Part shown: positions 9,189-38,000 of the stretch, piece after piece
How the letters are laid out: every line of letters starts with the position of its first letter
Numbering within the stretch: the first letter of the stretch is position 1
IMG/VR virus record: IMGVR_UViG_3300003465_000003
Coordinates: 35,794 to 99,793 of that record
Source of the DNA: a virus
Length of the DNA stretch: 64,000 bases
Reading direction: 5' to 3' (one strand)
Notes under the pieces: model-generated
Database searches by the model: none
Told to the model about the DNA's origin: nothing
The model's input: only the letters and a program-made list of their open reading frames with translations
Position numbers and translations under genes: made by a program

Positions 9189-10153
9189 AATTATACAACC
9201 ATTCTAGTAATACTTCAGTATCTTTTTCTATATGCTTAGGTATAGATACGTACTTACTGGTGAGAACCTTTGCCATCTCTTGTTCATCAGCGTCTGGATG
9301 ACGTTGCCTAAATTTATTTAAGGCTTCAGAGATTCTGGCTGTAGCTTCAGCAGCTTTTAGATCCTGTTCATAACTCATATTCTTGCTCCGGCTCTGATTC
9401 ACTCCGCTCCGCTAAGGCTACGCTCCGTGCTTCAGAGCCTCCCTCGTCTTGCATTAGTTCTTTTAAGGTCTCTTTATCCAATACTTTACGTTTGTAATGT
9501 TTTGGTTTTGAGCATATCGCGCATTCGTTGTGCGGATGAATTTTATAGTTACTCATAATTACATAGTGTACAATATATTGTACACCAGATCTTGTACACC
9601 TGTGCCCATTTACTGCCTGACTGTATGTGATTTGATGTCTATGGTAGCATTTACAATCCTGCGTTTACATTTTGGGCACGTAGTTCCCCAGTGTCCATCA
9701 GGTTCATAATGAAGACATTTACCACATTGAACTCCACCATTCCCCTAACCATCAAGGAGGTAAGTAATAGTTGTTGTATTGTTATTCTTCATTGGCTATT
9801 TCCAACAACATATCAGCATGACAAGGCGGGCAGCCCACTCGCACTTATAACCTTTGTGTGGGGACTCCTTGCGGAATTGCTTTGCCCCACAGGTTTCCCG
9901 CCAAGATAATCAATAATTATCATTCATTGATACTAATCGAGTATTAATTAAATCAGAGATCACATTTGCCAATGTAGACACAGATAACTTATGTCTATCT
10001 ACTATGTTTTTTAATTGTTCATTCCAGTAGTCGTTAAAACATTTTTCATTGCAAAAATCTGGATAAGCACCCAACGAATTCCAAACACGTTTGCATTTCA
10101 AACAATTCGTCATACTACTCCATACAGTTAGGCCATAGTTGGGCACAGCTATA

Positions 10154-11056
10154 CTAGAATGCGCCCTCTGCAACCTGCAAACACGTCAACCCCAACTCCC
10201 GCCACATCTTGACCACACTATTCCTATCATCAAGAACAAATAGAACATTATAATCATTCCGGACATACTTATCAAACAACTCCTGCTTAACAATATAATC
10301 CTTCCTGAAATCTCCAGTAGGCCGCATCAAAAGTGGGCCACCAACTGGGCACAGATGCTTGGTCAAAAATGCTTCTGTTTGTGCTCTGAACTTATCTTCC
10401 CGTCCAGACAAATAGATGATCTTATACCTACGGTTACACATGGCAGATATAACTTCATATACTGGCAGGTTCAGGTCATCATCTGCGCACTTGGCAGCAT
10501 CATAAGGACTACGTTTTCCATCAAATAATGCCAATGTCCCATCTAGATCGCATATAATTGCCAGTGGTGTTTCCGACTTAGGAACATAATGTTCCACCTT
10601 GGGGATCGCCACATATTTCTCATACATCTCACGGATGACTTTCTCTCCTACACGCTTCCCCTCAGGACGCTTACTATCCCTTTCAATACACGTCTCTAAG
10701 GGGACATGGGTAAAGTCAACCACGCGGAATTCTGCACCATACTTCCTTGCCAAATCACTTAGGCGCTGCTTATGCTTCCCGAAGTTGCAGTCTGAGCAAA
10801 TGACGGATTCACCATGCGCCAACGCTCCCACAATAGCCTTATTACGGATTTCAATAACTTCCTTCTCCGTCTCATGTGACCACTTCCATCCTTGCTTAAC
10901 AAGCTCTGCCCTAATATCATCCTTATTAACAATAACTACCTTTTCTCCACACGCCTTAGCATTGATAACTTCCTGCTCCGCCCACGTAGTCTTACCAGAG
11001 GCCGGGATGCCTCTAGTCATCGTCAACGTCAGCTTCCTCTTCTTCCTCATAGTCAT
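10154..11056 (-). CDS. pseT: Polynucleotide 5'-kinase/3'-phosphatase (T4 PseT-like)
   Basis: RGIPASGKTTWA P-loop kinase fused to a HAD domain: DLDGTLA, SGR, K, DDR. Confidence 0.92.
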   Translation of the reverse strand: MTMRKKRKLTLTMTRGIPASGKTTWAEQEVINAKACGEKVVIVNKDDIRAELVKQGWKWSHETEKEVIEIRNKAIVGALAHGESVICSDCNFGKHKQRLSDLARKYGAEFRVVDFTHVPLETCIERDSKRPEGKRVGEKVIREMYEKYVAIPKVEHYVPKSETPLAIICDLDGTLALFDGKRSPYDAAKCADDDLNLPVYEVISAMCNRRYKIIYLSGREDKFRAQTEAFLTKHLCPVGGPLLMRPTGDFRKDYIVKQELFDKYVRNDYNVLFVLDDRNSVVKMWRELGLTCLQVAEGAF

Positions 11057-11162
11057 CTTCTTCTAACTCCCGCTTAATGCGTTCTATTGCTTCCGCCGAA
11101 TATCTCTTGCGCATCTCACTTATGAGTAAATCGATATCTGAATTGTTGCCCATAATATCCCT

Positions 11163-11604
11163 TTATAATTCTCTAAACAATGATCTGAAATTACGTATAG
11201 TAGTGGAATAATTAAAACACCCCAGATTACTTACGTAACTAACATAACCATCTTTAACATCCTTTACAATAAACCAGAAGTCTCCAAATGGGTTATGTTT
11301 ATCCATAGGGAACACCCATCTAGAACCAATCTTGGGTGGGGTAGCTAATAACCACTTTAACATAAAACTCCTTACACCGTAAGTAAATTTACTTATCGTT
11401 TAAGATTTCTTCATATTCAAATCTAAAAACTCGTATAGAGTAATAACTAACATCGCCATTTCTATCTATATAACGTACCCAACCACCTTTAACACCAGTC
11501 ACAATTACACGGTCTTTAACAAATGGGTTGCCGTAACGCAATAGCCATCTACTCTTTACTTGCGGTGGCGTCGCTAATATCCAATGCCAAATTGTCTTTA
11601 ACAT
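11163..11604 (-). CDS. Two tandem paralogous small proteins (11163-11363 and 11389-11604)
   Basis: Shared W.LATPP...SRW...NPF...V..VK.G.V.Y...SI/TIR.FR. Confidence 0.7.
11379..11396. promoter_or_regulatory. Palindromic operator-like site, copy 1
   Basis: GTAAGTAAATTTACTTAT, one mismatch to the perfect palindrome. Confidence 0.6.
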
Positions 11605-12139
11605 TTGCTCTCCTTACTCTAGCCAAAATTTCGTCCAAGTGTATTGGTCTATAATCAATAACCTCAACACTGACATTAATATATGGTATCACCCTGTCTC
11701 CAACTACAACAGGTTCGTAATCAGGATTTTGGTGAATGTGGCCATGCACGTTGCAGATTGCAGACCCAAGGGACCTAGGATGAATGGGAATATGCGAGCA
11801 TAGCACTCTCTCCTCACTGCGCCAAGTAGCATAAATCTTCTCGAAGCCTGCGTCTAAATACACCTTTACTGGCCAGTGGTCATGATTACCAAGGTATATC
11901 CGCTTATGACCATTATATCGTGCTATCTCTTTACGGAACCATTCTCTGTCCAGCTTACCGCCACGCTTTATCGTTACGTCTCCTAGAAAGGATACATGGT
12001 CTTGTGGCTTCACCAACTCATTATGGTAAGTCACTAAGGCATCATGCATCTCTGCAAGATCCTTAAATGGCCTATTACCATACTTGATGATATTGTGGTG
12101 TGCCAAATGGTGATCGCTACAGTACCATCTATCCGCCAC
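11549..12139 (-). CDS. Calcineurin-like metallophosphoesterase
   Basis: SDHHLAH, LGDV, GNHD, SH.P, HGHIH, INVSVE. Confidence 0.9.
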   Translation of the reverse strand: MADRWYCSDHHLAHHNIIKYGNRPFKDLAEMHDALVTYHNELVKPQDHVSFLGDVTIKRGGKLDREWFRKEIARYNGHKRIYLGNHDHWPVKVYLDAGFEKIYATWRSEERVLCSHIPIHPRSLGSAICNVHGHIHQNPDYEPVVVGDRVIPYINVSVEVIDYRPIHLDEILARVRRANVKDNLALDISDATASKE

Positions 12140-13545: not shown

Positions 13546-14391
13546 TCATGTTGTTGCACCTTCTGGAACTAGCCTACCGTTTTCTAACTTGTAACGTAGG
13601 TCCCTAGCCTTCCATTGCTGTAAATAAACATTGACCATCCAGCTTTCCACTTTTTCTGTATTAGGTTCGTCTGGAAGAGGAGAAGTTTCCAACAGATCCT
13701 TAAGTTCTTGATCAAGCTCCCCTGCTTTAGTGAGGCATTCCTGCAGTGTAGCTTTACCAGTCCTCACACCCAACAACCAACTACGTTCTGGTTCCTGCAT
13801 TGGGCAAGACACTCTGCCAGTCTTCAATAGCTCTACACCCTGGAACCCAAGCCTAAGCATATGCATGGCATACTTAGTATCAAACCCATACTTTTCTACA
13901 AGCTCTGGCCTATTTATGTCCCGCTGCCCACGTTCGCCCAATAGTCTCTGCCGTTGTGCCTGACAATAACCAAGGAAAGCACGTCCAGCCTTCTTACTGA
14001 TAATGTCTGGAGCCAGCTCCATTAGCCCAAAACCCAACGCATTAGACACCACAATTTTATCGCGCGGGGCAAACAATAGATTCAGGATTGTAGGATTACC
14101 ACCTAATGCCAGCCTGAGGTACTTCCTTAAACTATAGATAACGAGATCTAAATCCCCAGCACTGTTACGCGCATTATGTTTTTGTTCCCGTTCCGCCGCA
14201 GTCCGATACACAACCTGCTCAAACTGTGAGAGCCCAACCACATGCTGAATATCTTCTACACAGACTCCCATCTCATCACGGTCCTCCATCCCATCCTGCA
14301 CATTTAACCCGTGCAGTGTAGAACCTACGACCACTCTAAGAATTGTTGTCCGCTCCGCCATTTGTTGTAGATTTTGCATTTCCGTTCCCAA
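13546..14391 (-). CDS. RlaP-type DNA pol-beta-superfamily nucleotidyltransferase
   Basis: VVGSTLHGL...DRDEMGV, DLVIYSLRKY..L...GNPTIL..LF, GFDTKYAMHMLRL. Confidence 0.85.
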   Translation of the reverse strand: MGTEMQNLQQMAERTTILRVVVGSTLHGLNVQDGMEDRDEMGVCVEDIQHVVGLSQFEQVVYRTAAEREQKHNARNSAGDLDLVIYSLRKYLRLALGGNPTILNLLFAPRDKIVVSNALGFGLMELAPDIISKKAGRAFLGYCQAQRQRLLGERGQRDINRPELVEKYGFDTKYAMHMLRLGFQGVELLKTGRVSCPMQEPERSWLLGVRTGKATLQECLTKAGELDQELKDLLETSPLPDEPNTEKVESWMVNVYLQQWKARDLRYKLENGRLVPEGATT

Positions 14392-14546
14392 GTCTTATAT
14401 GACCATACATGTCACATTTGTAGTCCCAACCGCCACAGACTGGACATATTCCAGCTCTGCGTTCTTTACATGAATGTCCCGGATGCCACATCAAACACTT
14501 CTTCCCTTGACAAACGCAACACCTACAGAATGGTTCCGGTATACAC

Positions 14547-14891
14547 TTACCACTCCAATTTGTAGAGTCCATCGGCATCTCTCCACTCTACATGCAACTC
14601 CCATTTATCTATGAGCTTTTGGCACTCGGCACAGGGCCTAGACTTTATAATCTTTCCATTCCTGCGCCTGGCACTAGCCACGTAAATCGTAGCACCCAAT
14701 AACCGCTTCTTGTTCGCTCGCTGAATGGCGTGGGCCTCGGCATGTATACCGTAGCCGGTAGGTCCCGGCCCATTCCACCCCCACGAGAATATTCCTTCTC
14801 CATCATCTATAGCAGCACCAACCTGAACGGCACACTGTGACCTACCCAATATGTCAGCCGCCAGTTGGTATCCGTCCATTGGTTTCTTCAT
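14547..14891 (-). CDS. Zn-dependent cytidine/dCMP deaminase-like protein
   Basis: QVGAAI, GWN, HAEAHAI, SRPCAEC. Confidence 0.85.
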   Translation of the reverse strand: MKKPMDGYQLAADILGRSQCAVQVGAAIDDGEGIFSWGWNGPGPTGYGIHAEAHAIQRANKKRLLGATIYVASARRRNGKIIKSRPCAECQKLIDKWELHVEWRDADGLYKLEW

Positions 14892-15511
14892 CGTTGTTCC
14901 TTATGTTTCTTACTTGGCATTATTAATAATATCACGAATAAAACCATTAGAATCAGCAAAAACGTCATCCACTCTCCCGGCTCCGCCCCGCTCCGAGGCT
15001 TTATCACTATATTTAATAAGACGTTATAATATTATATTTTGGGCTCAGTAGTAGATCCTCTAAATCTGTTGGCCGTCTTCTTAAAGTAATTCATTGCTGA
15101 ATGCAGACCGGCAGATGCAGCCATCATCTCATGTCCAGCAAACATTGGGCACTCCTTGTTATTAGCAGCAGTTCGTATTTCAGTAATCAGCCCATTAATC
15201 CTGGCTACATAACCCTCACAAATCGCTGCGACTTCCTTGTTATTAAACATTTGATTTACTCCGCATCAAGATCCGGAATGGCATCGGCATCCAGTTCAAC
15301 TTCATTCGCTACGCGCTCACGTTCTCTTCGCCTAGCAATATCCAATTGCACAATAGCCATTGACATCTCCGCGTTAACCCCAGAAGTAATAATAGTCATT
15401 ACATTCCTAGGCGAAAACCCTCTATTAAACAAGGGTCTCAATAATCTGGCTACCTCACCAGCCATAGTTATACCGTTACCGTTATAATGTCCAGTTTCCG
15501 TAAACAGTGGT

Positions 15512-16474
15512 CTAAACATTGGACTCCCTTTCAAACTGCGCCCGCAATAAGTAATCCTTATACCACTCTGCTACCCCACGTGTAATCTGTCTACTAATAT
15601 GGGGCCACGCATACTTAAACAGTACGTTCTTAATATCTTCCTCACACTCTTTAAGCACGTCCTGCGGGATCTCTCGCACCAATAATCCAATATCCTTCGG
15701 GTGGTCCTCAATTAATCCACGTTCCCGCAGATGCATGAGCGCTTTCTGCCAACGTGCTTGAGTCCCATACGCGTCTCCAAGCTTCTGGATAACATCTTTA
15801 TTGCCTGGATTCGCATCCTTCCACGCGCTGCGATGAACCTCCTTAAACGCTTCACTTACGAACTTCCCGAACAACATCTTCTTGTCTGGTCCATAAAGTG
15901 GTGTCAGAGGCTTAATCACAACCCCTTCGATCTTCTGCCCTCCCAGTACGGACTCAGTATCCAGGAACTTCCTCAGTTCCTCGGCAGAGTTCACAGTCCC
16001 TTGATAGAGCTGAGGCACGACCTCAAGTTCTATACGCTCAGCTTCCGCTACAAGCTGGTCGTAGGGCAGATAGGTTTCCTGATCAGTCAAGATATCGAAG
16101 AGGATGACGTTATCCTTTGGCACGCGGTCATAGGCCAGTGCATTATGCTTTGGTTTCGCTAGCACTTCTCCACGGTATTGCCAGCCTGGTTTCAGCAAAT
16201 GCTGCCTAGCTTTAGCAGCAGCAACAGCAGATCTGAATAGCGCTTCAGGTGCATCTGCTATCATTACCGCACCCTTGCTGCGGACCTTAAGTTCATAGAC
16301 TCCGGGAACTTCCTTGAGCAGCCCACCCTCAGGTTCCAACAATGGGTACAGCCCAAACGCAAAGAAGCTCCCATCAACCTTCTCTTGTACCTGAACAGGG
16401 ACGGTAAACAATTCGCTAACCGCCCTGTGCCCAAGGTTGAAAATTGATTGAGGGCTGCAAAATGTAGTTGACAC
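15512..16474 (-). CDS. ATP-dependent RNA ligase, probably starting at GTG 16474
   Basis: QEKVDGS adenylation motif, RGE, LFDI, VVPQLY.G, EGVVIK, KFVSEAFKE; GGGAGG RBS 6 nt before the in-frame GTG. Confidence 0.85.
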   Translation of the reverse strand: MSTTFCSPQSIFNLGHRAVSELFTVPVQVQEKVDGSFFAFGLYPLLEPEGGLLKEVPGVYELKVRSKGAVMIADAPEALFRSAVAAAKARQHLLKPGWQYRGEVLAKPKHNALAYDRVPKDNVILFDILTDQETYLPYDQLVAEAERIELEVVPQLYQGTVNSAEELRKFLDTESVLGGQKIEGVVIKPLTPLYGPDKKMLFGKFVSEAFKEVHRSAWKDANPGNKDVIQKLGDAYGTQARWQKALMHLRERGLIEDHPKDIGLLVREIPQDVLKECEEDIKNVLFKYAWPHISRQITRGVAEWYKDYLLRAQFERESNV

Positions 16475-16497
16475 AAACCACCTCCCTGTGGTATAAT
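16468..16497 (+). promoter_or_regulatory. Sigma70 promoter of the HNH gene
   Basis: TTGACA-18 nt-TATAAT with extended -10 TG; ATG 8 nt downstream. Confidence 0.8.
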
Positions 16498-16505
16498 GGG
16501 ACATT

Positions 16506-17015
16506 ATGAAAACTAAGTACACTAAAGAACAACTGCAACCAATAATTGCAGACTCTGTATGTTGGAATGATGTATGTAGAAAGCTAAATCTCAGCCCCAA
16601 TGGTGGGAGTATAAAAAGCTTTCTTCGCCGAATAGCTGACCATTTTTCTATATCCTACACTCACTTTTTAGGCAAAAGAAAGAATAAGTTATTGCGCACT
16701 ACAGCAGTCCAAGCTCTTAGATGTAATTCAGGTTATAATCGTTCTACTATACGCAAAATAGTAGTGGAGGACGAACTGCTTCCATACAATTGTATTATAT
16801 GTGGACAACCCCCAATGTGGAATGGCAAGCCATTGACACTAATTCTAGACCACATAAATGGTAACTGTAGAGATCATGAGCTTAAAAACCTAAGGTTTGT
16901 GTGTCCAAATTGCGACACACAGTTACCAACTTATGCAGGTAAAAATTGTAAAGGTATCCCAAAGACGTTAACGACACCCAAGAAACCTAAAAGGGTAAAC
17001 AAATTCCACACGTAA
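16506..17015 (+). mobile_element. Free-standing HNH endonuclease, antisense to the operon
   Basis: CIICG...W.GKPLTLILDHINGNCRDHELKNLRFVCPNC. Confidence 0.88.
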
Positions 17016-17043
17016 TAATCTGTGGAGAATGCCATGAATTCAT
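16987..17043 (-). pseudogene. Orphaned original 5' end of the RNA ligase (MNSWHSPQ...)
   Basis: ATG with AGGA RBS just after the upstream ORF stop; its SPQ matches the SPQ preceding SIFNLGHR on the far side of the HNH. Confidence 0.6.
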
Positions 17044-18488
17044 ATTTGTTTCCTAATCTGGCAAGGCCAAAACTTCTTTTATTGTAAGCAGCTTAATATT
17101 GCTACGACGTGGTAACTGCGGAGTTGCCGCCTTGCCTGTTGTCATCTTTTCTATAACTCGTCGTAAAGACCCCTTAAGATCGTATACTTCGTAGTGTACG
17201 CCCATTAATCCGCACAATTGTTCCACTTCATGAAATGGTGGACCCTCGGAATCCTTATTCATTTTACTGCTCCAACTTTATCCGATTCGGTTTCCTGCGT
17301 TTGTCATAACCCACGTAACTAATGATATACCCTGGTGCTTCGCTCGTAGGTTCTGCATAACTCCACACCTCAGCATTAGCTGCTTCTGGATGCGCCTGCT
17401 TAATCTTACGCAGTAGTCGCAATAGTTCTTTCAATACCATTATAGTTCATCCACACTATATGTATCATAGTCCCGACCAGGGGTACTAATATTTGCAATT
17501 GCTTCGTCTAAGCGCTCCTGCCGATAATCAATATCTTCTAACTTACTTTCCAACCTTGCCAATGTTTCAATAATGAGGTTGAGCTTCTCAACCACTGTAG
17601 CTAGTTCGTCCTTCATTTAATACCCCGACTTGTAATCGACTGCCTTATTCTTCATTGCTGTTGTTATTTCTACTGCGCCTCTTACGGATAGCCTAGTTGC
17701 GTAGTAGAAGTCGTTATAACTCATAATCTTTACTGTTTCGCCGCCCTCATAATTTACCTGCCTCAACGGATAATTAGCTCCTTTAATATGCAAAGTGGAT
17801 GTGGTTGCCTTTAACCGACCGCGTACACTTCTAATCTCTACTTTGCCATCATTCAACATGATCGCAAAGTAACGCAGCTTTTTCTGAGCGGGGTTGTCAG
17901 TTTTCCGCTCAACATATTTATCCTTTACCAAGTAATGCATGGCTACTCCTACTTGCTTACTATCTGCCAGCTCACATCCACAGGGACAATAAAATCCTTC
18001 AAGAAAAGTTTAGTAGCCTGCAGCAACTTATTGGATACCTTATGCAAATGCTCTTCGCCAAAGGCACCAAAAACCCCAAACTTAACACCCTCAGGTTTGC
18101 TGATACCGACCAAACGTAGAAATGATAGGTTGGAAATAAGCTTCATTTCTGATAATCCCATGTCACTACGTACCTTACGTTGGATCTGTAGGTCAGAACC
18201 AGGATAATCCAATGAATAATCGTAGCCTCGCACTCCAAGTGATTCACCACTTACCTTGTACATATGCAGAGGTCCATTGGACAATGGGTACCACCTGCTA
18301 TCATATAGCGCTGGATCATCATTAGCTACGTCCCTACTTGCGTTGCGCATGAACTCTTCTACACTAGGGTCTGCCACAACATGCACGATACAACCCACGA
18401 CATTCCGCAACGGACCCCGAATTGGACCCCTGCTTATCGACAATGAAACCCACTTGGTTGGTGTAATCTGCGTATCCATCATATATCC

Positions 18489-35007: not shown

Positions 35008-38000
35008 GTTTGCTCTGATAGATATGGAGCACAGACAAGTCGGTTGACCAGCATTTTTATCGCCAAAGATAACGCTGATCGTTCGGTCCGTGCGCCAAGT
35101 TTTATTTCTGTTGTGGCGGTGTCCAGATATCTACGGTATAACTGTGTAAACCCACTGGAGCAGTCCAAATATAAAGCGTGTGCTCACCGGGCCTTGGATA
35201 TCTGCAGTTACTAAGCTCTCTTGGGACTCCCTTGAATGTAAGTAGGCTACTATCCCGCTCCATCGTTCCATCAAACGTGAAATCGATCACATGCCCATCA
35301 TCTCTTCGTAGTCTAGCCCATTTTCGCATGAGTTACTCCATTAAGAGACCAGTGATGGCGAACAGGAGAAACACAACGAGGAAAAACAATGTAGTTCCCC
35401 ACAGTCCGAATCCACCAGCAAGTAGCGTCAACAAGAACGTTACACTACTAATTGTCCTGACAATATCCCCGTCAGTCATTGAGAAACTCCGTATAGTGCC
35501 GCACAATTTTCACAATGACGTAACTGGCTGCGGCTATATCCAGGAAGAAGCTACTGTGACCCCATGGGTATGTTCCGAACCAAAGATGGGTGCCAACTGC
35601 CCCAATTAGCCAACCAACGCAGAATGCTGTTAAAGACATTATAGTCCTCTACCACCCCAAGGCCACTTGCGCCAATAGTCATCACACCGCTTAGTATGCG
35701 CTTCACGCTCAGCACGTGTTGGCCATAACCACCAGCCGTATTTGTGTGGCTGAAACATTGTGAATGTGCAGATCAACGCGGCAGGCGGAATTAGTAGACC
35801 CACAAAGGCTGTGAACAATGCGTCAACCACATCCTCGCTTGTAGTATCCAGCATGGGATAACCATTCCTAGCCCATGCGTAAGTAGCCCCAAACTGGTAA
35901 ATGGCAACGAGGATAGCGAAAATAATGTAAGCAAGTAGCAACATTTGTTTTACTCTTTATGCTCCCCGCCTTTATGCAGAGTCTCACGCCACTGGCTCTT
36001 GTTACCGCTACTAGGCTTCATCTTGATGATAGGGCCATGCGGTTCAGCGGGTATTGCTCCGCAATGTTCACAGCTTGGGATCGCTGGTATAACGGACATC
36101 CATATTCTAGGGATGGTAACTCGACCGCCACACTCAGAGCAGGTTCCTATTGTTATGCTCATACGTCATTCTCCTTTGTGCCAGTCTGTGCTGCGGAGGA
36201 ATGGAAAGCCATGCCTGATTGTATAGCCAAAGATCACCCACAGGATTAGAGCGCCATAAGTATTGGCGCTAGAGGGCTCCAACAGGGCAATGGCGGTCCC
36301 TGATACTGCCAACGGCAGGCTAACACTGTTGAAGAATAGGTGCGATTTGCGCATATGGCAGCTCCTAACACACGATGCCGGACAGATAAATGAGGACAGG
36401 CAAACATACGAACCAAGCCGCTGGCACCAGTATCGTCAGAACCAAGGCACCAAACACAACGGCTATCGGGTCTACCATCTTTCCAACTCTCCAGATCCCG
36501 AACAACCATAGCGTCACGAATGCCAGAGTGTAGATCACGGCTATCAATGACCACGACCCGATCATAATGTCCTGCATTAGAACCTTCCTAACTTTGCAAC
36601 CTGCTTTCTACGCAGAGACTCGAAATGTTCGCGCTTTGCAGGGTTGGTCGTTACGGGTGAACCGCAGTACGTGCAGCGCGGCGGCGCATCCTTCTTGCCC
36701 GATTCATTGTGCAGTGTATTCTGCCCACAGCTACTGCAAAACTTCTTGTGTGCCATGTTAGTTAACCCTCCACTCGGACTTCTGCGGGTTCATTCGGGTC
36801 TTCAAACGCCAGTCTAATGACCCTGAAATGCTCTTCATGGTCCCCCACGAAATCCATGTAATCAATCCTGTCGGTGTCCTTAACACCAGCTTTCCGCAAG
36901 GCGGCAATGAATTCAGCAATGGTCATGGTTAATCCCTGTCTGAAAGGTAGAGGAACAGCAACCAGGCGAGGCCGAGAACCAACCATGCAAGGCCGCCCGC
37001 ATGTTTATCTACGAACTCAATGAGGGTCATTGCGTAAAACATTTACGGCTCTCTCCTTGAAAAGTAGGGGAATAACACGTTCCCAATCCCGGCGACGAAG
37101 TTCAGCCACATTGCCACGCTGACGTAATCGCCCATCCCAATGTGAATGCCAGCGGTGAACAAATTGCACATGCCGAGAACGAGCTGAAGATCCTTCATTG
37201 CACCTGCTCCTTGACTATCTCTCCGTCAAAATCAATCTCGTAACGCAATCCGCAAGTCCCACAGGTGAGTCCAATAGGCTCCTTACTTAGCCTTTCGTAA
37301 TAGGGCTTTTCCTCTTCCTGCACGAAACGGATTGTTACCTCGTAACGCGGGATGAACGTAATTCCGCTGCAACGCTCGCATGTCAGCACGGAGCAACTCC
37401 TTCGCTTCTTCGTCGTTGTTAAGTGCCCATCGGCGCAACCATGCTGGCAATTCATGATGTTTTATTACCCAGTTTATTAGCCGCTGTTTCATTGTTACGT
37501 CTCTGTGATGGGATCTTGCACGAATAGCGGCATGTGTCACAACTACGCCTGCCATTCGCTGGATGCATATAACCGTGCCTGCACATGCGGCACTTAACTC
37601 TCGGCTGGACCATCTTCAGTCACTGGCTCCTCAGGCTGTTGGGCAGGCGGTTGTACCTTCCCGCACCACTTACCACCGATCACCAGATAACGGAGTTCTA
37701 CGTAGTTGGGATCGCCAAACTGCCCTTGCTCCTTCATACCGTCGAAGTGTTCACGGACGGCTGCGACCTGGGAACCGAAGTGTTCCACTAACTCTTGCTT
37801 TGTTTCTGCCTCAATCTTGACTGTGATGGTTAACACCATTAGCCTACCTTGTTAGAGGTTTCCTTGCACTTTTTGCATAAGCACCGCTTGTGCCAGTGAT
37901 GGCCGGCATGACAGGGGGCCTCCCACTTCCACCAACCGCATGGGGAGCACAACAAACCTAGTTTGCAGAACAACACGTCCAACCAGAAACTGGTGTCTAG

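Follow-up and report, generated by a model that had tools for sequence, protein, structure and literature searches.

The stretch of viral DNA analysed here, referred to as the window, spans 64,000 nucleotides (nt), positions 35,794 to 99,793 of IMG/VR virus record IMGVR_UViG_3300003465_000003. It contains a gene for an Rnl2-like RNA ligase that is interrupted near its 5' end by a cassette carrying a gene for an HNH homing-type endonuclease in antisense orientation. The ligase is probably still made: the gene appears to have been restarted from a Shine-Dalgarno (SD) sequence and a GTG codon that lie on the cassette itself, together with a replacement N-terminal end from a donor lineage. A sequence-only reading of the same DNA had already proposed a restart of the gene without splicing, and this interpretation is supported overall, with a correction regarding where the new N-terminus came from. 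The cassette-borne SD and GTG offer the only route by which an intact, conserved ligase of 320 amino acids (aa) would remain expressed.

Anatomy of the interrupted ligase gene

The cassette was delimited by reconstruction of the empty site and amounts to 572 base pairs (bp), inserted between native codons 8 and 9 of the ligase gene (Table 1). When stub codons 1-8 are joined to the sequence running downward from position 16447, the translation is MNSWHSPQSIFNLGHRAVSELF, which is the family consensus, and the same codons followed by present codon 10 onward read MNSWHSPQSIFNLGHRAV..., again the consensus of the ligase family. The old start codon, an ATG at 17043, still has its ribosome-binding site, which overlaps the stop codon of a 69-aa gene at 17053-17262. 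From this ATG the frame reads MNSWHSPQ and then, as the sequence-only reading described, runs into the back of the HNH gene, where it adds IITCGICLPF and ends at a TAG (16989-16987) within the 3' end of that gene. The same reading had set the whole arrangement at 16441-17055; its anatomy holds, but the insert proper has the borders given in Table 1, and the stub and ligase frames are offset, since 572 is not a multiple of three. Only 62 nt of the insert lie outside the endonuclease open reading frame (ORF). There is no target-site duplication, and the direct and inverted repeats at the insert borders are short, chance-level matches only.

The ancestral state is apparent from the relatives of the ligase. 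These number 3,822, of which the best 119 with a complete N-terminus were inspected. The start motif W-x-S-P/Y is found in 110 of the 119, usually in the form M-x-x-WHSPQSIFNLGH, and the nearest homologue (P0002, 79% identical overall) begins with MNSWHSPQ, identical to the stub at all eight positions. An uninterrupted native start is present in all 119 except P0039, which is also the only one with an STTFC-like start; the cassette-type N-terminus is absent from the other 118. A scan of IMG/VR with the ligase alignment yielded 50 more distant loci, at most 58% identical and not syntenic with the window, all of which are free of HNH genes, with the standard start directly before the gene in nearly all. 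HNH-free homologues thus have the contiguous native start that the sequence-only reading predicted. They do not show the opposite pattern, in which uninterrupted homologues would begin like MSTTFC and lack an MNSWHS-like end.

On the far side of the cassette, the ligase frame is now opened by GGGAGG, six nt and a GTG at 16474-16472, after which it reads STTFC-SPQ-SIFNLGHR, as had been noticed from the sequence. Sites that combine GGAGG with a start codon and open an ORF of at least 50 aa number 18 in the genome, the restart among them. An in-frame ATG farther upstream on the minus strand (16504-16502) has no SD; it stands back to back with the ATG of the HNH gene (CATTATG). The triplet SPQ occurs on both sides of the cassette with all three codons different, TCT CCA CAG in the stub and AGC CCT CAA in the new end, so that five of nine nt differ. 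Such a pattern is not attributable to chance: three residues would match at this place and in this frame with a probability of about 2e-4, and the first eight residues of P0002 are the same as the stub. At the DNA level, the stub and the new codons have no recognisable similarity.

The restart signals coincide with the predicted promoter of the HNH gene on the other strand. Its boxes, TTGACA at 16468-16473 and TATAAT at 16492-16497, are separated by 18 nt, with a TG at -15/-14. A full match of this kind occurs nowhere else in the window or in the whole 99,793-bp genome, and 0.02 would be expected per window. The sequence-only reading correctly placed the GTG over the -35 box and the ribosome-binding site in the spacer: the GTG shares two nt with the box, which overlaps both the GTG and codon 2, and the SD lies between the boxes. 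The ATG of the HNH gene (16506) is found eight nt past the -10 box, from which its mRNA is predicted to be leaderless or to have a leader of 2-3 nt. Searched as a DNA pattern, the combination of promoter and SD gave 34 matches in IMG/VR, none of them beside an HNH or ligase gene, and the general promoter shows no enrichment over background in front of the genes for distant HNH family members.

The HNH gene is full length. The CxxC...DH...N...CxNC motif of zinc-binding and catalytic residues (C96/C99, D115-H116, N128 and C133/C136) is invariant in the alignment with its relatives. The match to Pfam HNH_3 is below threshold (E 0.026), and structure searches with the model gave weak scores (E 0.07 or worse; Z at most 4.8), yet HNH domains top both lists, matched weakly by the C-terminal half of the model; its first 57 residues align with helix-turn-helix folds. 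The gene does not lie within an intron or intein: Rfam returns no family with E values of up to 10 allowed, the orientation is opposite to that of the ligase, and the non-ORF remainder is the 62 nt mentioned above. Its distribution is sporadic, considering the uninterrupted starts among the 119 homologues and the absence of HNH genes from the 50 IMG/VR loci. By its nuclease motif, its lack of an intron or intein and its sporadic presence, the element is classed as a predicted free-standing HNH endonuclease, resembling the Mob type of phages.

Relatives of the HNH protein in the collections searched are distant. A tblastn search returned only proteins at most 43% identical over most of the length, and a scan of IMG/VR with the HNH alignment gave 80 loci, all distant, whose identity does not exceed 45% over most of the length. 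Scans of IMG/VR with the single ligase and HNH proteins gave no match, and a metagenome scan with P0124 as the query found distant relatives only, and not the 1,374-nt JGI contig of P0124 itself. The closest HNH homologue, P0122, is 65% identical and has the same length of 169 aa and the same C-terminal tail. It is represented by a Logan contig of 14,186 nt, a length that fits none of the top 120 ligase homologues. The cassette family may therefore also occupy other targets or more distant ligases.

The interrupted gene itself has the Pfam family, the lysine of the KxDG motif and the fold of an ATP-dependent Rnl2-like RNA ligase. In an alignment of 30 sequences, the protein as now read keeps all 76 invariant columns, including the KxDG lysine (EKVDGS). 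Its AlphaFold model has a pLDDT of 86, and the best Foldseek match is the T4 Rnl2 structure 2hvr (E 9e-10), followed by TbREL1 and NgrRnl, the RNA ligase of Naegleria. A sequence search of the PDB with the ligase profile found no true relative. Megablast with the locus gave no match among GenBank phages, and tblastn with the ligase recovered only ligases of Bacillus and Staphylococcus phages, at about 30% identity.

Table 1. Features of the interrupted ligase locus (window coordinates)
Feature	Position	Strand	Basis or remark
RNA ligase as now read, 320 aa, GTG start, Rnl2-like nucleotidyltransferase	15512..16474	minus	PF09414 E 1e-15, phrog_548 E 5e-27
Inserted cassette	16448..17019		reconstructed empty site; GC 38% vs 49% in the genome
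Replacement N-terminus GTG TCA ACT ACA TTT TGC AGC CCT CAA = (M/V)STTFCSPQ	16448..16474	minus	sequence
Predicted sigma-70-type promoter of the HNH gene, TTGACA-18-TG-g-TATAAT	16468..16497	plus	12/12 match, extended -10
Shine-Dalgarno sequence GGGAGG, 6 nt before the new GTG, inside the promoter spacer	16481..16486	minus	sequence
HNH homing-type endonuclease, 169 aa	16506..17015	plus, antisense to the ligase operon	phrog_10822 E 3e-44
Stub ORF: 8 native codons, 10 from the back of the HNH gene, TAG	16987..17043	minus	sequence
Native ligase codons 1-8 (MNSWHSPQ), now the stub	17020..17043	minus	identical to the first 8 residues of P0002
Ancestral ligase ribosome-binding site AGGA	17051..17054	minus	overlaps the TAG of the 69-aa upstream gene

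Source of the replacement N-terminus

The end that came with the cassette differs from the native one and continues in frame into the ligase core, and the native end survives as a stub that matches P0002. The nine new residues can be aligned with natural ligase starts that are slightly longer than the usual one: ..IVSTAWHSPQ in P0071 (six of nine), ..IISTAWHSPQ in P0061 and MTSTAWHSPQ in P0044. A closer parallel comes from P0039, which is 65% identical to the window ligase and starts with MTIHMSSHFSSPQ. Its N-terminus, MSSHFSSPQ, has the same M-S-x-x-F-x-S-P-Q pattern as the window ligase, including a Q that is missing from its own SPG-type clade; its four nearest relatives (P0032 at 83.5%, then P0055, P0050 and P0051) all read xAWHSPG. 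An HNH homologue, P0123, is 61% identical to the window endonuclease, and the longest Logan contig is 5,929 nt for P0123 and for P0039 alike. From this equal size and the protein data, the two are probably encoded on one contig.

The 5' third of the window ligase is mosaic. In trees, residues 121-320 are sister to P0002 (support 0.998) and residues 10-120 group with P0012, P0020, P0037, P0003 and P0004 (support 0.84). The conflict is strongest around a variable loop at residues 42-62, a region in which the loop type is scattered across otherwise distant homologues. The different affinities of the two parts suggest that the transferred tract extends well past the promoter.

The resemblance to natural starts, the pattern in P0039, its probable link to P0123 and the conflict between trees all argue that the new N-terminus is most likely a diverged or foreign ligase 5' end carried by the cassette, on which the promoter has been superimposed, perhaps as part of a longer co-converted tract. 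The sequence-only reading had derived it from the promoter DNA. The overlap on which that view was built is real, but the direction was probably the wrong way round, considering that the codons resemble the starts of P0071, P0044 and P0039.

An origin de novo, from promoter DNA that happened or was tuned to encode an SD, a GTG and STTFCSPQ, is accordingly unlikely. In its favour, the GTG, codon 2 and the SD all lie inside the -35 box and spacer, and the lack of DNA similarity between the stub and the new codons leaves no room for a recent duplication. Nor did a donor with an STTFC start come to light: a protein search with ligase residues 1-40 found no other, and the back-translated pattern F-[C/S]-S-P-Q-S-I-[F/Y]-N-x-G-H had no matches in viral and genome contigs. 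Promoter DNA alone would, however, leave unexplained why its nine residues align with the P0071 and P0044 starts, why their pattern recurs in P0039 within an SPG clade, and why the difference in affinity suggests a tract reaching well beyond the promoter.

Expression of the ligase and competing explanations

The restart with a donor-derived end can be envisaged as follows. A free-standing HNH homing-endonuclease cassette would have inserted itself antisense into an Rnl2-like ligase gene, at the junction of native codons 8 and 9. It would have consisted of the HNH gene with its own strong promoter and, on the opposite strand of the same ~50 bp, an SD, a GTG and nine codons. These codons re-create the conserved S-P-Q by other codons and turn W-H into F-C. 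Transcripts of the minus-strand operon would cross the HNH gene in antisense. Ribosomes that start at the old ATG would make only a dead-end peptide of 18 residues, and those that restart at the cassette GGGAGG and GTG would make a full-length ligase with a hybrid N-terminus, with neither splicing nor bypass. The replacement end would most likely be the diverged 5' end of a donor-lineage ligase, transferred together with the endonuclease gene.

The re-spelling may also have a role of its own. The re-spelled half of the presumed recognition site adjoins intact ligase sequence and would protect the invaded allele from being cut again. Both the altered S-P-Q codons and the changes of W to F and H to C would fit such an immunisation of the target site. 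Tryptophan has one codon and histidine two that are one base apart, and they can hardly be re-spelled, because the residue would change. The sequence-only reading had likewise supposed that the endonuclease alters its own target site, and that it sits harmlessly in the gene. On the latter point, the insertion may instead carry a cost, through head-on transcription and a terminator-like hairpin described below.

A more speculative extension is that the ~50 bp at 16448-16497 constitute an evolved and conserved two-strand "restart module" that is mobile between ligases of different phage lineages; this is possible but less likely than not. One strand of such a module would serve as the HNH promoter, giving a leaderless mRNA, and the other as the SD, start and first codons of the ligase, so that RNA polymerase occupancy or the antisense RNA of the HNH gene could directly tune translation of the ligase. 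As a unit, it would use its M-S-x-x-F-x-S-P-Q end to re-spell the target site, with W and H replaced by F and C because their codons cannot be changed silently.

The simpler view that the ligase has been knocked out is very unlikely. It would make the insertion recent, the GTG and SD fortuitous, and the downstream ORF intact only for want of time to decay. A stub that is still identical to the N-terminus of the nearest relative does suggest a young event, and the W and H are indeed replaced. However, chance would hardly bring together, right at the junction, a strong and ideally spaced SD, a start codon and an in-frame S-P-Q, the S-P-Q alone having the low probability given above. All invariant ligase residues are retained, and a second lineage, with an HNH protein only 61% identical, keeps an intact ligase with a similar N-terminus, which implies long-term retention.

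Phage endonuclease genes are often intron-borne, and the two parts of the ligase might in principle be rejoined through a group I or II intron carrying an antisense ORF, through trans-splicing or through ribosomes that bypass the gap between Q8 and S9, but this is scarcely credible: with E values of up to 10 allowed, Rfam matches no ribozyme or intron on either strand of 15400-17600, the RNA around the restart folds no more stably than shuffled sequence (z = 0.16), 62 nt leave no room for a ribozyme, a bypass would have to span 572 nt where that of gene 60 spans 50 nt, the glutamine codons differ (CAG and CAA), the frames are offset, and a separate SD and start are present. An intron with an endonuclease ORF was rejected on the first two of these grounds together with the antisense orientation, and a programmed bypass of the gene 60 type on the gap, the codons and the frames, in agreement with the sequence-only reading, which had considered splicing and bypass the less likely alternatives. 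A split into genes in pieces was rejected as well, since the upstream fragment consists of eight native and ten out-of-frame codons and provides no polypeptide that could reassemble.

Several observations weigh against a functional restart with a donor-derived end. The new end replaces two near-invariant residues, W by F (found in 5 of the 119 homologues) and H by C (found in none), and a ligase with these swaps may be impaired. Transcription that meets that of the ligase head-on from the consensus promoter, together with 510 nt of sense-antisense RNA, could depress expression of the ligase. A weak terminator-like hairpin also lies on the minus strand upstream of the restart, at 16551-16533. 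Most of the mosaic signal stems from one variable loop (residues 42-62), and recombination could have occurred in P0002 instead of in the window phage. The adjacency of P0039 and P0123 rests on protein data and the matching 5,929-nt contigs, and the cassette borders likewise rest on protein data. The low GC content backs a foreign origin of the cassette only weakly, as it is not unique to this island: there are 16 such islands in the genome.

The hairpin has an 8-bp stem with three GC pairs and a T-rich tail. It lies on the strand opposite the beginning of the HNH gene, some 60 nt ahead of the restart, and if it did work as a terminator, the ligase would have to be transcribed from within the cassette. 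Other islands below 40% GC include window positions 11008-11708 and 9458-10308.

Known endonuclease insertions and the neighbourhood of the ligase

Endonuclease cassettes that bring a replacement gene end or a diverged homologous flank have precedents (PMC3630166; bioRxiv 10.1101/2022.08.31.505936). The closest logic among known systems is that of the fungal mitochondrial mORF "gene hybrids", described for atp6 of Allomyces macrogynus and for atp6, atp9, cox2 and nad3 of Glomus, in which the native gene end persists as a silent remnant identical to that of sister species (PMC3630166). As in the mORFs, an endonuclease ORF lies within a gene, a foreign and diverged end is in frame with the core, a native remnant is kept and no splicing is involved. 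The phage locus is the mirror image of these hybrids. The fungal mORFs replace the 3' end and are co-oriented with the host gene, often in frame with it. Here, the 5' end is exchanged, so that the cassette must supply an SD and a start codon, and the endonuclease gene runs in the opposite direction from a predicted promoter of its own; as few as nine codons may have been replaced, and the host is a phage rather than an organelle. The locus is thus a phage instance of a trick best documented in fungal mitochondria, its unusual point being the two-strand overlap of promoter and translation signals.

For phages, a review on T4 lists three free-standing endonucleases that have inserted into genes: mobE in nrdA of Aeromonas phage Aeh1, mobA in gene 39/60 and seg43(25) in gene 43, each giving rise to two working polypeptides (PMC2988022). 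The T4 MobA element has conserved accessory sequence, part of which derives from the insert and is a divergent homologue of the target, together with the bypass that blocks self-cutting (bioRxiv 10.1101/2022.08.31.505936). The ligase cassette resembles MobA (reviewed in PMC2988022) as a free-standing HNH endonuclease in a conserved coding region, with accessory sequence that would serve both gene function and protection of the allele. MobA, however, leaves its gene split, with two functional polypeptides that have gained tails, and relies on translational bypass of 50 nt, whereas the cassette leaves a dead stub of eight codons and restarts the gene with no bypass. Like mobE and seg43(25), it is a transposition-like insertion into a gene for a phage enzyme with no intron or intein. 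In those two, the polypeptides reassemble and the endonuclease is co-oriented, using the expression signals of the host gene; here, there is no second functional fragment.

There is also a likeness to intronless homing as known for T4 SegF, SegG and MobE (PMC2988022). The endonuclease is free-standing and sporadic, and the mosaic flank is consistent with a co-conversion tract, which would suit homing as the route of arrival. The classical SegF, SegG and MobE elements lie between genes, whereas the present one is inside an ORF, where a restart module is needed.

The locus shows how an endonuclease can lodge in a conserved coding region of a phage without an intron, an intein or bypass, by way of a spare, re-spelled gene start. 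To gene callers, such a locus looks like an unremarkable gene that happens to begin with an odd GTG, and the stub goes unnoticed along with the invasion. Cassettes overlooked in this way conceal a route by which gene ends are exchanged horizontally, and one origin of mosaic 5' regions. A consensus promoter laid over translation signals on the opposite strand is a compact natural case of two-strand regulatory coding, and the conserved WHSPQSIFNLGH may be the site that an HNH enzyme of new specificity recognises.

Just downstream of the ligase, at window positions 13546-14891, are genes for an RlaP-family nucleotidyltransferase (PF10127, E 1e-29) and a small protein of the cytidine/dCMP deaminase fold (PF00383, E 1.5e-9). 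Judged by these families, the neighbourhood of RlaP, deaminase and ligase would fit an RNA-repair gene cluster.

Two of the distant ligase homologues look damaged. One (L039:2935-3828) lacks about 56 residues at its N-terminus, and with them the catalytic lysine motif, and another (L044:3001-3872) has a frameshift near residue 150. A third (L040:2458-3762), on an IMG/VR contig of 162,637 nt, carries some 130 aa of inserted sequence, in frame, immediately behind EKVDGS; the insertion matches the Pfam Hint module at E 3.7e-6, below the curated cut-off. It is probably a mini-intein, which would mean that the ligase family has been invaded by more than one kind of selfish element.

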